Shown here: positions 43,601 through 50,411 of the stretch, piece after piece
Layout: each line of letters starts with the position of its first letter
How positions within the stretch are numbered: position 1 is the first letter of the stretch
DNA from: Dictyostelium discoideum
Lineage: Eukaryota
DNA length: 64,000 nucleotides
Assembly: GCA_000004695.1 (NCBI GenBank)
Contig: CM000152.2
Span: 2,848,001-2,912,000 of the forward strand
Direction: 5' to 3'
Notes under the pieces: model-generated
The model's database searches: none
Told to the model about the DNA's origin: nothing
Seen by the model: the letters and a program-made list of their open reading frames with translations, nothing else
Position numbers and translations under genes: made by a program

Positions 43601-43892
43601 ATGTATAATAATAGTAATAGTAATAATAATAACGGTAGTAGAAAAAGATCAAGCCCACCATTATATATAAATAATAATAATAGTGGCAATTATATATCAC
43701 CACCCTCTCCATTATCGCCAAAACAAACCAATAATTTTCTTTTTAATAATGGTGGTTTTAATTCATTTGAAAATCCTCAACAACAATCTCCTCCACAACA
43801 ACAACAACTTTTATTTACATCACCAATACCAACTAGACCACAAAATCTATATCAATACATCGATGAAAATGAATTAAATACAGGTTATAATA

Positions 43893-43970
<78 letters not shown>

Positions 43971-44905
43971 GTAATAATAATAATAATAGTAATAATAATA
44001 ATAACAACAAAATGATAACTACAACCACTACTACAACCACAAAATCAAATAATGACTATAAGAAGAAAATAAAAAAACAAATTAATTTTAAATTGGATAA
44101 TTTACATGAAAGCAGTGAAGAGGAAGAAGAGGAACAACAAGAAGAAGAGGAAGAAGAAGAAGAAAAAGAAGAACTAAATTATATTAATAATAATAATAAT
44201 AAAAATGATGATGACAATAATAGTCAAGATGAAGATAAAGAAGAAGATAAATACCATGAAACTAATACAGATTTTGGATTATTAAGTGTTGCATCAAAAG
44301 AGGATTTAATGATTTGTTTAAATGTTTTAAAAAAAGAAATGGGTCAATTTAAAAATTTATCTCAAAATTTATTATCAAGATTACAAATATTAGAGAATGG
44401 TATTGGTCAAGAGAAAATGATAAGATTATTAAATAATAATAATAATTATAATATGAATGGTAGTAGTGATAGTAGTGATAGTAGTAATAGTAGTGGCCAT
44501 AGTAGAAATAATTCTGATGAAAATATGATCGATTGTTATTATGTCACTAGAAATAATAATAATAATAATACCAATTCATTATTAATACCACCAGCACCAC
44601 CACAATTACAACAACAACAACAACAACAACAATTTTATAGTCAAGATGCAGTTATGATTTCAACATACCTTTTAGAAGTTCAAAAGATTGTTGAAAAACA
44701 AAGACAATATGATAGTTTATTAGCACAAAGAGAAAAGTATTGGGATATTGAATTAAATAAAATTACAATGGCAATTTTAAATAAACTTGGTCCAAATCCA
44801 TCAACAACTGTTGATTTACTAAATTTACCAATGAATAATATGAACATTAATAAAAATAATAATAGTAATAATAATAATAATAATAATAATCATAATTATA
44901 ATAAA

Positions 44906-44937
<32 letters not shown>

Positions 44938-46057
44938 TTTTTCAAATTTTAATAATGATGATTGCTTTTATAATAGTAATAATAGTTGTAATAGTGAAGA
45001 TTTTGATTCATTTACAGCATTAAATAATATAAATAATAGTATTATAAGGAATCAAAGTAGTAATAGTTTAAATTTAAAGGATGATTCAGAGGAAACAAAT
45101 TTCAATAGTTTAAAATCTAAAACAAATAATATCTTTAAAAGATTTTATATTTATTTATTTGGAACTAAAAAAACAATTACATTTTGGAAAAAAGTTGCAA
45201 TCATTGCTATCATTGTAATAGTATGGCCTTTAATTGCAAATTTAACTTATAAATTTATTGTTTATTTAATAAATAAAAGAAGATTAGCTAAAACTCAACC
45301 ATTTATAATTGGAAATAATAATACTAGTAATTATAATAGTTCAACTGCAATTGGTAAAAGTTTAAAACCAATTAAATCTTCAATTTTAGTACCTTCATCT
45401 TCATCATTACCATCTTCATCTTCTTCATCATCATCCACTTCTTCGTCATCCAATTTATTATTACCTTCATCAATTAATAATGGCACTAATGCATTTAAAA
45501 AGATTAAATCGTCATTAATGAAAAAGAATTCCGATATAAGTAGTGGTGTTGGTAATGTTGTTAGCAGTGTTGCAAGTAATGTTGTTGGTGGTAGTGGTTC
45601 AGGGGTTGGTGCACCTGATTTTGTAAAAGCATTTATCCAAGGTGTTAGTACTGGTGATGGTGGTTCAAATGATAATTTAACAAATAATGCATTATCATCA
45701 ATTACAAATACATTTGGAAATTTAAATACAGTTGCAAACTCTTCAATTGCACCATCTATTGGTTCAGGTTTAATTGGATCTTCTATTTCTCCATCCTCTT
45801 CATCCTCCTCTTCATCATCTGCTAATACAGCATCAAATATAATTAATAATTTTACACCATCAGCTTTAAGTCAACTTAATTTACCTGGTAGTTCATCATC
45901 ATCATCATCTTTTAGTAATCCTGTTTCTTCAATTGCTAATAATTTTATGTCTGATTCAAATAGATCACCATCATCATCCTCATCATCATCCTCAAGTACA
46001 AGTGATTCAGAGAATGGAATGTTAAAATTAGTTAGAAATTTATTAACTCATAGATAA
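43601..46057 (+). CDS. hypothetical N/S-rich protein with one predicted TM helix (818 aa), single exon
   Basis: ATG ORF with AT-rich flanks. The acidic block EEEEEQQEEEEEEEEKEE. Hydrophobic segment VAIIAIIVIVWPLIANLTYKFIVYLI. Ser-rich C-terminus. Confidence 0.55.
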
Positions 46058-46239: not shown

Positions 46240-46608
46240 TTATTTATTGGGAGTATTGGTGGTGGTGGTTGTGGTATTATTTAATACAGAATTTGAAGAT
46301 GAGTTTACACTATTACTATTACTATTATTATTGCTATTATTATTATTATTATTATTTTCATTATTTTGATTTGATAATTCAGTAGAGATCGATAACTTAT
46401 CAGTTGAATTAGAAACACTATTTTCATTACTATTATTATTTGTAAAGCTCGAGTTTTCAAACTCTTCCAATTCTTCTTCCAACATTTTTTGTTGTTCAAT
46501 GAACCATGTTGGTAATTTATTTGGAAATGTTACTAAATCAACATCAAAGAGTTCAATAAATTGTTCATTCACATATCTTGTATTACTTTGACCACTAAAT
46601 GCTTTATA
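46240..46608 (-). CDS. PFA-DSP (Siw14-like) phosphatase homologue, exon 3
   Basis: TTTAAG acceptor. It begins YKAFSGQSNTRYVNEQFIELFDVD, which corresponds to the EY..F.....R..D..F.ELFD C-terminal motif of plant/fungal atypical dual-specificity phosphatases. An N/T-rich tail follows. Confidence 0.55.
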   Translation of the reverse strand, partial: YKAFSGQSNTRYVNEQFIELFDVDLVTFPNKLPTWFIEQQKMLEEELEEFENSSFTNNNSNENSVSNSTDKLSISTELSNQNNENNNNNNNSNNNSNSNSVNSSSNSVLNNTTTTTTNTPNK

Positions 46609-46746
46609 CTTAAATTAATTGAAATTAATATTTATAATTTTAAATAAAATTTATATATCATATATAGCTTAATAATAATAATAATAATAATATTAAATGG
46701 AATATAAAAAAAAAAAAAAAAAAAAAAAAGTAAATAATAAATTTAC

Positions 46747-46953
46747 CTCGACTAAAATTGAAGTAAGATTCCAATTTTGTAATCTTCTTAAACAACCAAC
46801 TAATACACCAGTTTGATGAACACCTGATGTACACGTTATCATAAGTGGATAATAATCATAATTTAAAACAATTTCTAAACATTCTTTAATGAGTTCATCT
46901 GTTAATGGTTTCCATGATATGTCAACTTTCCATGATTTTAATCCTAAATGAAT
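46747..46953 (-). CDS. PFA-DSP homologue, exon 2 (P-loop region)
   Basis: IHLGLKSWKVDISWKPLTDELIKECLEIVLNYDYYPLMITCTSGVHQTGVLVGCLRRLQNWNLTSILVE aligns with the PFA-DSP core ..[26 protein letters not shown].LTSI..E. The catalytic HCx5R is replaced here by TCx5Q. Confidence 0.6.
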
Positions 46954-47044
46954 CTAGTAATAATAATAAAAATAAAAATTATTAATAACATTTTAAATAA
47001 AATCAATTAAATAAATAAAAAAATAAAAATAAAAATAAACATAC

Positions 47045-47662
47045 TAAATTAATATTATTTTCTTGAAAAAAGCTTGAAACAGCTTTAATTGGTACTTCTG
47101 GTGATAATTGTACGACAGTTTTTAAACCTAATAATTTAATAAAAGGAAAGTTTGCAGGATATAATGAATTTGTTCTATATAATAAGGGTTCAATTGTACC
47201 AAAGAGAGCTGGTGGTGATAATTGTGGTGGACCACTTTGAATTAATGAATTTATATGAGTTTGTTGTATTAATTTTTGTTTTTGTTCTTCTTTTTTAACT
47301 TGTTGTTGTTGTTGTAATGTACTCGTTATAGTTTGTGGTATTGATTGTAATATTGATTGTGATTGTAATAATGGTGTTGTTGATTGTTGTTGTTGTTGTT
47401 GTTGTTGCTGCTGTTGTGGCTGCTGTGGTTGTTGTTGTTGTGGCTGTTGTGGCTGTTGTTGTTGTGATTGATTTTGTGAAGTTTTTGATTTTGATGGTGT
47501 TAATGGTACTTTATATATTTGTTGTTGTTGCTGCTGTGGCTGCTTCACATTTTGATTTGATACTATATTTACAGAAGATGAGGAAGTTTTTAAAATTTGT
47601 TCGGTTTCATTGTTATTATTGTTATTATCGATTTCACTATTTTCATTTGCGTTGGAACTCAT
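47045..47662 (-). CDS. PFA-DSP homologue, exon 1 (poly-Q N-terminus, then LYRTNSLYPANFPFIKLLGLKTVVQLSPE..FFQENNINL)
   Basis: ATG ORF. GTATGT donor at forward 47043-47044, phase 0. The end aligns with the PFA-DSP N-terminal core (FP..F.FL..LGI..I..L.PE). Confidence 0.55.
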
Positions 47663-47746
47663 TTATGTGATGGTATATATATATATATATATATATGTTA
47701 TGTATTATACAAAAGAAAAAAAAAAAAAATGAAAAAAAATGAAAAA

Positions 47747-47787
<41 letters not shown>

Positions 47788-47928
47788 CAAAAACTTTTTT
47801 TTTATGGTTTTCCATATGTTTAAATATCTATTCTGGTTAAATTAGTCTCTCGATTTTTTTTTTTTATAATTTTATAATTTTATTTTTATTTATTTTTATT
47901 TTATTTATTATTTTTTTTTACAAATATA

Positions 47929-49515
47929 TTAATATAAATAAAATTCATATTTCTTTTTAAATATTTTATTAAACATTTTCCAAATTAAATCTTGATCAAC
48001 AATTTTTAATTTACCAATTAATGGAAAAAAGAATCTAAAATCATTTAGTTGATAATGAGTATCAAGAATCCAAATTGATTCTAATGATGGTGGTAAAGAA
48101 TTAATTGAAATTGGAGTTTCATTATTTAAAACTATAATATATTTTAAAGAGATTGGTAACCATTTCATATGAATTGGTTGTTTAAATGCACAACCTAATT
48201 CTAAAAGTTCTAATGATGGTGGTAATGTATCGAATTTAATTGTTGAATTATAATTACCAATTCTTAGACACTTTAATTTTGTAAAAACTTTAAAATCTTT
48301 AACTGGTTTAGAATAGAAATTATAATCAAATTCATTTAAATTTAAATTTATTAAATCAGAAAGACAAGATTTTGAATGGTAGTCTAATTTGTAATTATTT
48401 TCAATAATATTTACTTTAATAGATTTAATTTTTTCAAATTTATCTAATAATAATTTAGAAGTTTCTTTATATAACCAATATTTTAATAGATTTGATTTTG
48501 TTAAATTTAAATTTATTGAACTAAATTGTGATGATAAATAATAACCTTGAAGTGAATCTTGAAATGTATTAAAAAATATCGTTACATTTTTAACTGATGA
48601 TGGTATAATTTTTGAATTTAATTTTAAAATTTTTAATATTTCATCATTTGATGATAAATTACCATTTTTATTATAAACTTTTAATTTTAAATATTTTGAT
48701 TTTTCATTATATTTGTTTTTAATATTATCATTATCATTATCATTTATTTGAACACCAAAATTTGAAATTTTAAGGTTTTTAAGTTTTTTTGGTAAAATAC
48801 CTTTAATTAAAGAAATATTAAATTTACTTGGTAATGATAATTTCTTTAATGTCCATGGTAGTTTATTTGAATTAATTAATTTATTAAAAAGTGAATTTGA
48901 GGGAAATTTAATTTCTTTAATTAATTGAGGTAAATTATCTAATGATTTATCAAAAAAGTAACCAAATATAATAGTTTTTAAATATTTTGGTAAAACATTC
49001 TCATTTAATTCTTGATTAAAATATTTCCCAAATTTTAACTTTTTCAATGTATTTGGTAAAATGTTTACATCAATTTTTTGATTAAAATTTGAACCAAACT
49101 CTAATATTGTTAAATTTGAAAATACTCTATTTGAACCAACCTCTAATGGTATATTAAAATTAAATGGAATTATTAATTTATAAAGTGATTTTGGTAATTC
49201 TAAATTTGATAAACTATAATTAATAAAATTTGTTTGATATAATATTATTGATTCAATATCTTTTGGTAAATCATTTAATTTTTCACCAATTTCATATATT
49301 TCATATTGTTTTGCATCTTTTTGAATATCATCAACTTTTACAAATAATGATTTAACATATTGTATATTATTTTTTATGAATGGTTGTAAAGATGAATCTA
49401 AATCAACTGGAAATGAAACTAAATTATACATCATTAAATGTTTGAAAATTAATTTATTTAATACAACATTTCTCCATATTTTAAAAAATAAAATAGAGTT
49501 ATCATTATTATTCAT
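47929..49515 (-). CDS. FNIP-repeat-containing protein (~529 aa)
   Basis: Many repeats of the Dictyostelium FNIP type (..LP.sLk.L.FG..FNQ.i..n.LP..Lk.L.F). The N-terminus LFFKIWRNVVLNKLIFKHL is typical of this family. The ATG at forward 49513-49515 is preferred over the TTG start in the track. Confidence 0.75.
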   Translation of the reverse strand: MNNNDNSILFFKIWRNVVLNKLIFKHLMMYNLVSFPVDLDSSLQPFIKNNIQYVKSLFVKVDDIQKDAKQYEIYEIGEKLNDLPKDIESIILYQTNFINYSLSNLELPKSLYKLIIPFNFNIPLEVGSNRVFSNLTILEFGSNFNQKIDVNILPNTLKKLKFGKYFNQELNENVLPKYLKTIIFGYFFDKSLDNLPQLIKEIKFPSNSLFNKLINSNKLPWTLKKLSLPSKFNISLIKGILPKKLKNLKISNFGVQINDNDNDNIKNKYNEKSKYLKLKVYNKNGNLSSNDEILKILKLNSKIIPSSVKNVTIFFNTFQDSLQGYYLSSQFSSINLNLTKSNLLKYWLYKETSKLLLDKFEKIKSIKVNIIENNYKLDYHSKSCLSDLINLNLNEFDYNFYSKPVKDFKVFTKLKCLRIGNYNSTIKFDTLPPSLELLELGCAFKQPIHMKWLPISLKYIIVLNNETPISINSLPPSLESIWILDTHYQLNDFRFFFPLIGKLKIVDQDLIWKMFNKIFKKKYEFYLY

Positions 49516-50411
49516 TTTGAGAATAATTTTTTTTTTTTTTCCCAATCTTGATAATAAGTTGTTTTTGTAACTGTTGTTGTAGTTTTTGTTTATTTTCTAT
49601 TATATTTTTTTTTTTTTTCTCTCTTTCCCTTGTTATTTGTTTTTGTTGGTAAAAATTGAAAAAAAGTGAGAAAAAGTGGTAAATCAAAATGCAAATTCTC
49701 TTAAATATTTCTAAAAAAAAAAAATCAAAAAAAAAAAAAAAAAAAGTCTTCAAAAATAACAAAAAATTTTTTTTATCGCAAAACAAATAGATATTTTTTT
49801 TTTACCACTTGATATTTTATTAGAATTTGATTAAATAATAATACTTGAAAATAAAAATAAAAATAAAATAAAATAAAAAAACAATATAACAAAAAACAAT
49901 TTTATAAACTTCTTTTTATTTTTGTTAATCATTTGGTTTTTTTTTTATTTACTAATTAATAATTAATGGTCATTCACTGTATAAAAATTTTTTTTCCTGA
50001 CTGTAACAAGTTATTTTTTCCAATAAGAAATTATTCAGTTTTTTTTTATTATTTTTAAAATTATATAAGTAATATATAATTTGTTGATAATTTTTATTTG
50101 AAAAATATATACAATCAAAATGGATAATAAATTACATGATGATTTAATGATAGGATATTTGAGCTAAATATAGAAAAAATTATTTTTTAATTGAGTATAT
50201 CATTTATGGAACCAAAATGAAAAAATTAAAAAATAACAAATGATCACATTCAATTTTTTTATATTTTACATCATTTAAGGTATTTGAGTGTTCTTTTTAT
50301 ACTAAATCCATATTAAAAATAAATAAAATTAAATCATAAAAAAAAAAAAAACATTCAAATTTACATTTTTATTTGTCAATCTTTTTTTTTTTTTTTTTTT
50401 TTTGGCATTTT

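Follow-up and report, generated by a model that had tools for sequence, protein, structure and literature searches.

DDB_G0280073 of Dictyostelium discoideum, a PF03162 protein with an Arg-less active-site loop, is a probable non-catalytic relative of Oca1

What does a phosphatase-like protein do when its active-site loop has kept the cysteine and lost the arginine? The question is raised by a three-exon gene in a 64-kb stretch of Dictyostelium discoideum DNA (the window), which a preliminary description presented as a Siw14-like phosphatase paralogue with a degenerate active site. We found the 397-residue product to be identical to D. discoideum AX4 DDB_G0280073 (XP_641226.1; UniProt Q54VX9), a protein that databases name only 'hypothetical protein' or 'Protein-tyrosine-phosphatase'; the segment 46747-46953 is its exon 2, on the minus strand. 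The three-exon model was borne out by the exact RefSeq match and by two GT...AG introns, both of phase 0 and of about 6.5% GC, versus 28% GC in the coding sequence. The features of the gene, in window coordinates, are as follows.

46240..47662, minus strand: whole gene DDB_G0280073, start codon to stop, 397 aa (splice sites, frame, exact match to XP_641226.1/Q54VX9)
47045..47662, minus strand: exon 1, aa 1-206, with the poly-Q/N N-terminus and the first third of the phosphatase-like domain
47234-47662, minus strand: low-complexity poly-Q/N N-terminus, aa 1-143, part of exon 1
46954..47044, minus strand: intron 1, 91 nt, GTATGT...TAG, 6.6% GC
46747..46953, minus strand: exon 2, aa 207-275, with the WPD-like loop, the P-loop and the conserved alpha4 helix GCLRRLQNW
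46807..46836, minus strand: P-loop codons T246-C247-T248-S249-G250-V251-H252-Q253-T254-G255 (sequence, alignment, site mapping)
46609..46746, minus strand: intron 2, 138 nt, GTAAAT...AAG, 6.5% GC, holding a long T-run
46240..46608, minus strand: exon 3, aa 276-397 and TAA stop, with the domain end (RYVNEQFIELFDVDLV), the C-terminal helix and the tail
46459-46509, minus strand: conserved C-terminal helix in exon 3, aa about 309-325
Exon 3, after the C-terminal helix: Asn/Ser/Thr-rich tail, not conserved among dictyostelids
46519..47215, minus strand: Pfam PF03162 (Y_phosphatase2) match, aa 150-305, split by both introns

The preliminary description had allowed that a corrected gene model might restore a canonical CX5R loop through an alternative exon. 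Six-frame motif scans found no such exon in any frame, either within about 3 kb of the locus or across the whole window, and returned only antisense low-complexity noise. Searches by tblastn with the DDB_G0280073 protein (the query), AtPFA-DSP1 and Siw14 found no second copy in the 64-kb window. We noted two long homopolymer A/T tracts, one of about 27 nt in intron 2 (46700-46730) and one exceeding 40 nt in the 5' intergenic DNA upstream of the start codon (47700-47790); a (TA)n run immediately precedes the ATG. By window coordinates, a 538-aa protein with FNIP repeats lies downstream (47929-49545, minus strand; Pfam PF05725, E = 2.6e-33), and the upstream neighbour is a convergent 818-aa Asn/Ser/Gln-rich ORF (43601-46057, plus strand), which has one hydrophobic segment (…VAIIAIIVIVWPLIANLTYKFIVYLI…), an acidic run and no Pfam match at E <= 0.01.

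That the core of the protein belongs with the plant and fungal atypical dual-specificity phosphatases held up in both profile and fold searches. Residues 150-305 matched Pfam PF03162 with 139.9 bits (E = 7.8e-41), where the curated gathering cut-off is 27 bits, and sequence searches of the PDB aligned the whole core with AtPFA-DSP1 (1.8e-26) and Siw14 (2e-23). An AF2 model of the core, for which the input was a 58-sequence alignment, had a pLDDT of 92.8 and a pTM of 0.88. When this model was compared by Foldseek with the PDB, in which OCA-type proteins have no solved structure, the best 24 matches were all to AtPFA-DSP1 or Siw14 (E 5e-15 to 7e-13; target-normalised TM 0.83-0.91), and the next fold family, DUSP23, was nine orders of magnitude weaker (E 9e-6). 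At its C-terminal end the model also has a long helix, LPTWFIEQQKMLEEELEEFE (model residues 166-182), and the block-mean pLDDT over model residues 151-183 is 96. Its sole low-confidence stretch (block pLDDT 68) was the WPD-like loop, aa 212-222 (about 46906-46938, minus strand), in which two residues are inserted compared with AtPFA-DSP1 and Siw14. Trp214 of this loop is kept in 65% of the clade described below, and a W-K-P consensus with Trp220 is present in the 58-sequence alignment and invariant among dictyostelids; the stretch may be a clade-specific functional loop.

In alignments with AtPFA-DSP1 and Siw14, the query segment MITCTSGVHQTG lies opposite the canonical P-loop, a correspondence far beyond chance. 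Here the canonical HCxxGxHR has become TCxxGxHQ (TCTSGVHQ): Cys247 is kept, and the changes are His to Thr246, Lys to Thr248, Arg to Ser249, Lys to Val251 and Arg to Gln253. The alignments thus agree with the preliminary reading of TCx5Q, with Cys kept and the invariant Arg and flanking His, Lys and Arg lost. The HCxxGxHR signature of PFA-DSP enzymes sensu stricto is absent, as both the pre-Cys His and the Arg are missing. For AtPFA-DSP1, the residues that bind 5-InsP7 or act in catalysis have been defined (PMC9038691), and six of the nine that we checked are changed in the query (K151T, R152S, K154V, R156Q, K186N and D191N). Those changed include the basic PP-InsP-binding residues in the P-loop and in the alpha5-alpha6 region (K151, R152, K154 and K186), which read T, S, V and N, together with D191, which reads N. 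The three retained sites are His155 (His252 in the query), Arg188 (Arg286) and Lys120 (Lys215). The preliminary prediction of a catalytically impaired pseudophosphatase is a reasonable one.

A word-indexed search of 5.8 billion proteins gave 142 matches to the query at E <= 1e-5, and 1.84 billion representatives scanned exhaustively with HMMER gave 2,268 family members at E <= 1e-3, of which 149 scored <= 1e-30 against DDB_G0280073. The clade to which we assign the query comprises 228 sequences (about 230), or 187 at 80% non-redundancy. It includes Amoebozoa (dictyostelids, Physarum and Balamuthia), early fungi (Glomeromycota, Mucoromycota, Endogone, Jimgerdemannia and Mortierellomycota), Holozoa (Capsaspora and Corallochytrium), red algae (Galdieria and Porphyridium) and oomycetes. 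Named members are 44-74% identical to the Dictyostelium core, with identity to the query reaching about 57% outside Amoebozoa. Loops identical or nearly identical to that of the query were found in Polysphondylium, Acytostelium, D. purpureum, D. cf. discoideum and a Physarum transcript. Across the 228 sequences the column of the catalytic Arg holds Q in 31%, E in 28%, L in 11%, F in 9% and H in 5%. The only exceptions we saw at this site were P0093 and P0218, with Arg (CSSG[IM]HRTG), and P0085, with Lys (CSSGKHKTG); these are nested in the Arg-less clade and represent either ancestral retention in a basal lineage or reversion. Since the clade spans several eukaryotic supergroups, its distribution indicates that the Arg-less loop is not a private decay, and the word 'degenerate' in the preliminary description, taken as local decay, does not fit a loop common to a multi-supergroup clade under purifying selection.

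The Cys itself has also been replaced within this clade. At 80% non-redundancy, 132 members have C at the nucleophile position, 46 have D, 8 have S and 1 has G, so that Cys is present in 71% and Asp (about 25%) or Ser (about 4%) in about 29%. The loop in Mortierellomycota is MDTSGIHEIG (P0037-P0046, P0049, P0051 and P0059), red algae and many others have CDTSGIHQVG or CDVGGVHLVG (P0030, P0033, P0035 and P0066), and a further set has the Ser-type loop LMSSSGTHQVG. Cys-replaced forms were also seen among P0053-P0061 and others, and the 'CD' forms have a Cys one position upstream, at the canonical His site. The spread of these loop types suggests that the Cys was replaced in several independent events.

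The preliminary description called the protein Siw14-like, which in the strict sense it is not: within the family it falls on the OCA side, and Oca1 is its closest relation. Against group HMMs the query scored 206.8 bits on an Oca1-like model (a group with MCNLGRHRTG-type loops), 105.4 bits on a Siw14/AtPFA-DSP1 model built from only two sequences, and 87.5 bits on an Oca6 model. For this placement we used source-named Oca6 (P0123-P0190) and Oca1 (P0328-P0447) proteins from the database. All 120 of the named yeast Oca1 proteins scored higher on the Oca1-like HMM than on the HMM of the query clade (median bits: 201 Oca1-like, 179 query clade, 113 Siw14/At and 84 Oca6), which argues that the sister group of the clade really is Oca1. 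In a neighbor-joining bootstrap (not maximum likelihood) of 119 sequences and 165 columns, rooted on Siw14/At, the query clade was monophyletic in 66 of 100 replicates, the clade plus Oca1 in 63, Oca1 alone in 26 and the clade plus Oca6 in 6. We would place the clade with the OCA side, nearest Oca1 rather than Siw14/PFA-DSP, with moderate confidence from these sequence comparisons. The OCA clade has been described as sister to the active PFA-DSPs, as consisting of predicted pseudophosphatases and as having 'fungal and protist members' (PMC13573052), and the feature by which that source defines it, a PF03162 fold with critical active-site residues substituted or deleted, is what we see in DDB_G0280073.

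Two closer assignments were considered and rejected. The query is not an Oca1 orthologue: its loop has Val251 and Gln253, its clade is distinct in 66% of replicates, Oca1 proteins prefer their own HMM, and Endogone sp. encodes one protein of each type (P0031, in the clade, and P0104, Oca1-type), which makes the two types paralogues. An Oca6 orthologue, for which shared CT[SN]G and ENNI..IH motifs had given a lead, was rejected on the 87.5-bit score, the equidistance of Oca6 and the 6% of replicates joining it to the clade. Yeast loops differ among themselves, being CCGMGRHR in Oca1, HSNKGKHR in Oca2, deleted in Oca4 and HCTNGELI in Oca6 (PMC13573052). Taken together the loop types suggest a stepwise loss, from a loop with D191, to the Oca1-type MCNLGRHR with N191, to the MC[TS]SG[IV]H[QE] of the query clade and then to Cys-less forms, the order of these states being deduced from the site pattern. 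Among the yeast Oca1 proteins we also noted P0422, a 'tyrosine-protein phosphatase [Kocuria palustris]' that is 64% identical to the yeast-Oca1 probe; it is probably a yeast contaminant of a bacterial assembly, not a bacterial Oca1.

Column entropies, calculated from the 80%-non-redundant clade, show which parts of the domain are constrained. No position of the loop is less constrained than the former Arg site (2.84 bits versus a domain mean of 2.04), and the loop glycines are nearly invariant (G250, 0.10 bits; G255, 0.31 bits). In the alpha4 helix, R262 has an entropy of 0.0 bits, C260, L261 and W267 are each at or below 0.41, and Gln265 is at 0.66; toward the C-terminus, E294, F296, D297, D299, P304, P308 and W310 are each at least 90% conserved in the clade. 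Together with the site pattern, these entropies indicate that selection acts to preserve the fold, the backbone of the loop and certain surfaces, but not a phosphate-ester active site or a polyanion-binding pocket.

This constraint does not extend to the ends of the protein. Among five dictyostelid proteins the core, from GPPQLSPP (starting at aa 144) to LEEELE, is about 90% identical, while the N-terminal poly-Q/N and C-terminal Asn/Ser/Thr regions are unalignable; homologues from outside the dictyostelids are mostly about 190-300 aa long and have no comparable N-terminal extension. The poly-Q N-terminus noted in the preliminary description is therefore present, but we rejected the idea that it is a conserved, functional fusion. 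The poly-Q/N tails are low-complexity expansions at the species level, ordinary for Dictyostelium.

The reading that we favor, with a probability of roughly 55%, is that DDB_G0280073 is a non-catalytic pseudophosphatase of the OCA class, from an ancient Oca1-related branch, and a probable partner or regulator of competent family members. The protein has kept the PFA-DSP/PTP fold and, in its P-loop, the backbone shape (C-x-x-G-x-H-x-T-G), and it has lost the transition-state Arg and nearly all of the basic residues that clamp PP-InsPs. With these residues gone, PP-InsPs are most likely neither hydrolysed nor tightly bound.

It is unlikely, though worth weighing, that the protein is still an enzyme, a Cys-dependent hydrolase or transferase acting on a new, less anionic substrate, with the P-loop's backbone amides, together with His252 and Arg286, standing in for the Arg. 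In favor of this, 71% of clade members retain the Cys, 76-78% His252 and 86% Arg286, the loop length and glycines are nearly invariant, and the sequence as a whole is conserved as strongly as in a functioning enzyme (fungal and red-algal members are 54-57% identical to the query). The PFA-DSP mechanism is also unorthodox already, in that it uses no general-acid Asp and His155 is catalytic (PMC9038691). However, Asp or Ser stands in place of the Cys in about 29% of non-redundant members whose remaining sequence is highly similar, which weakens any alternative in which a changed substrate is still handled by Cys catalysis, and the former Arg site is the most variable of the loop, with an acidic Glu in many fungi. 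In addition, the D191 equivalent is Asn, and mutation of D191 removes more than 90% of AtPFA-DSP1 activity (PMC9038691). Even ScOca1, despite its Cx5R motif, was inactive on the generic substrates pNPP and OMFP and on a phosphoinositide (PMC13573052).

We consider it more doubtful still that the protein is a thiol redox sensor, in which Cys247, in a low-pKa environment, would be reversibly oxidised and so switch interactions. Such a role would fit the name OCA ('oxidant-induced cell-cycle arrest'), the active-site Cys of PFA-DSPs, which is noted to be reversibly oxidised, and the oxidative-stress phenotypes of oca mutants (PMC13573052), and the retention of the Cys where the catalytic Arg was lost is in its favor. 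Against it, the Arg and Lys residues that would stabilise a thiolate are gone, and many clade members have Asp or Ser in place of the Cys. A His before the Cys helps to lower the Cys pKa in PTPs, and here that residue is Thr or Met. Finally, that a Siw14-type paralogue is in recent, lineage-specific decay toward a pseudogene, or that the gene model is an artefact, either of which might have been suspected from the five departures from the HCx5R consensus and the long low-complexity tails, is effectively refuted by the intact ORF with its exact RefSeq match, the core about 90% identical across dictyostelids, a loop type found in several eukaryotic supergroups, the lack of an alternative exon and the closer relationship to Oca1 than to Siw14.

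If DDB_G0280073 is, as we favor, a non-catalytic member of the OCA class, it would probably partner with or regulate one or more of the other PF03162 proteins of D. discoideum. There are four such proteins in this species, Q54VX9 and in addition Q54MJ2, Q1ZXG8 and Q54MS1, and none of the latter three was among the best 120 matches to the query. One D. discoideum locus, DDB_G0285909, has been named 'candidate DdPFA-DSP1' (PMC9038691); a canonical paralogue therefore probably exists in D. discoideum, and it would be among the partners. The contact surfaces would be the most constrained parts of the protein, namely the alpha4 helix GCLRRLQNW, the NEQFIELFDVDLV segment and the clade-conserved C-terminal helix. 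This partner model is extrapolated from the OCA proteins of budding yeast, which are paralogues and not orthologues of the clade. IP-MS and two-hybrid studies in yeast show interactions of the OCA proteins and Siw14 with one another, and oca mutants lose their caffeine sensitivity through suppression by overexpressed SIW14 (PMC13573052). More generally, many pseudophosphatases act by binding active relatives (PMC13573052).

A further and rather speculative possibility, which we think improbable as a whole, is that the Arg-less Oca1-related clade is a very old (possibly LECA-age), highly constrained pseudoenzyme whose former PP-InsP pocket, with Cys replaced by Asp repeatedly, has been repurposed from a strongly basic to a neutral or acidic one that would bind not a phosphate ester but, e.g., a basic segment of a partner protein, and which serves as an obligatory regulatory subunit of PP-InsP phosphatases in many protist and early-fungal lineages. 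Slime molds have very high PP-InsP levels (60-180 uM) and are without PPIP5K (PMC13573052); were this reading true, the protein could be a main point of control over PP-InsP turnover in Dictyostelium.

That OCA-type pseudophosphatases exist is an established concept, and a 2026 supplement already includes Q54VX9 among 'putative' PF03162 proteins. Their roles, however, "have not been defined", and a 2026 review asks for deeper phylogeny and functional work (PMC13573052). In the searchable literature we found no mention of DDB_G0280073/Q54VX9 or of its loop, although older family studies may already show part of this; literature on DG1060 held nothing relevant, and a TriTryp phosphatome paper held nothing on the Arg-less clade. 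What seems modestly new, on the sequences compared here, is that the protein belongs to an Arg-less branch of its own, sister to Oca1, that is widespread and strongly conserved and has repeatedly exchanged even the Cys. Nothing known is overturned by this result. The strong conservation across supergroups of a branch that is Arg-less and in part Cys-less suggests that its non-catalytic function is old and important. With four PF03162 proteins and high inositol-pyrophosphates in its host, DDB_G0280073 offers a genetically tractable, non-fungal entry to the OCA pseudophosphatases, and conservation marks the alpha4 helix and the C-terminal helix as surfaces to mutate.

Of known systems, yeast Oca1 (YNL099C), a predicted pseudophosphatase with the loop xCxxGRHRTG, is nearest. 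It has the PF03162 fold and the highest profile similarity (179 bits on the query-clade HMM), and it too has lost K151 and R152, has Met, Cys or Thr for His149, and has Asn for D191. Oca1 differs in that it retains the Arg of Cx5R (R in 81% of 22 Oca1-like representatives, versus Q/E/L/F/H in the query clade; the loop is CCGMGRHRTG in 117 of the 120 named yeast proteins) and in having Arg at the K154 position, where the query clade has Ile or Val. Siw14 and AtPFA-DSP1 (PDB 6BYF and 7MOK) share the fold and are the best structural match, with about 35% identity over the core and with the alpha4 helix GCLR+LQ+W and an FxExFD motif in common with the query. They differ in the loop (HCKRGKHR versus TCTSGVHQ) and in the WPD-like loop, where the query has the two-residue insertion and Trp residues; catalysis has been demonstrated for the PFA-DSPs, whereas for the query activity is predicted to be absent. 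Yeast Oca6 (YDR067C; HCTNGEL[IV]) also belongs to PF03162, and like the query it has kept the Cys, lost the Arg and has ENNI..IH upstream of the WPD-like loop. It is nevertheless distant, being about equally far from the query clade (111.5 bits) and from Oca1 (107.7 bits), and unlike the query it retains the pre-Cys His, has lost His155 and ends its loop with Ser instead of Gly. The pseudo-members of the animal PTP superfamily, STYX and those of the MTMR group, belong to unrelated subfamilies and have usually lost the Cys. STYX-type proteins retain phospho-ligand binding, which is doubtful for the query as its pocket has lost its positive charge. The likeness lies in a conserved fold with an inactivated Cx5R motif, and in the binding or regulation of active partners, which is the role we would predict for DDB_G0280073.
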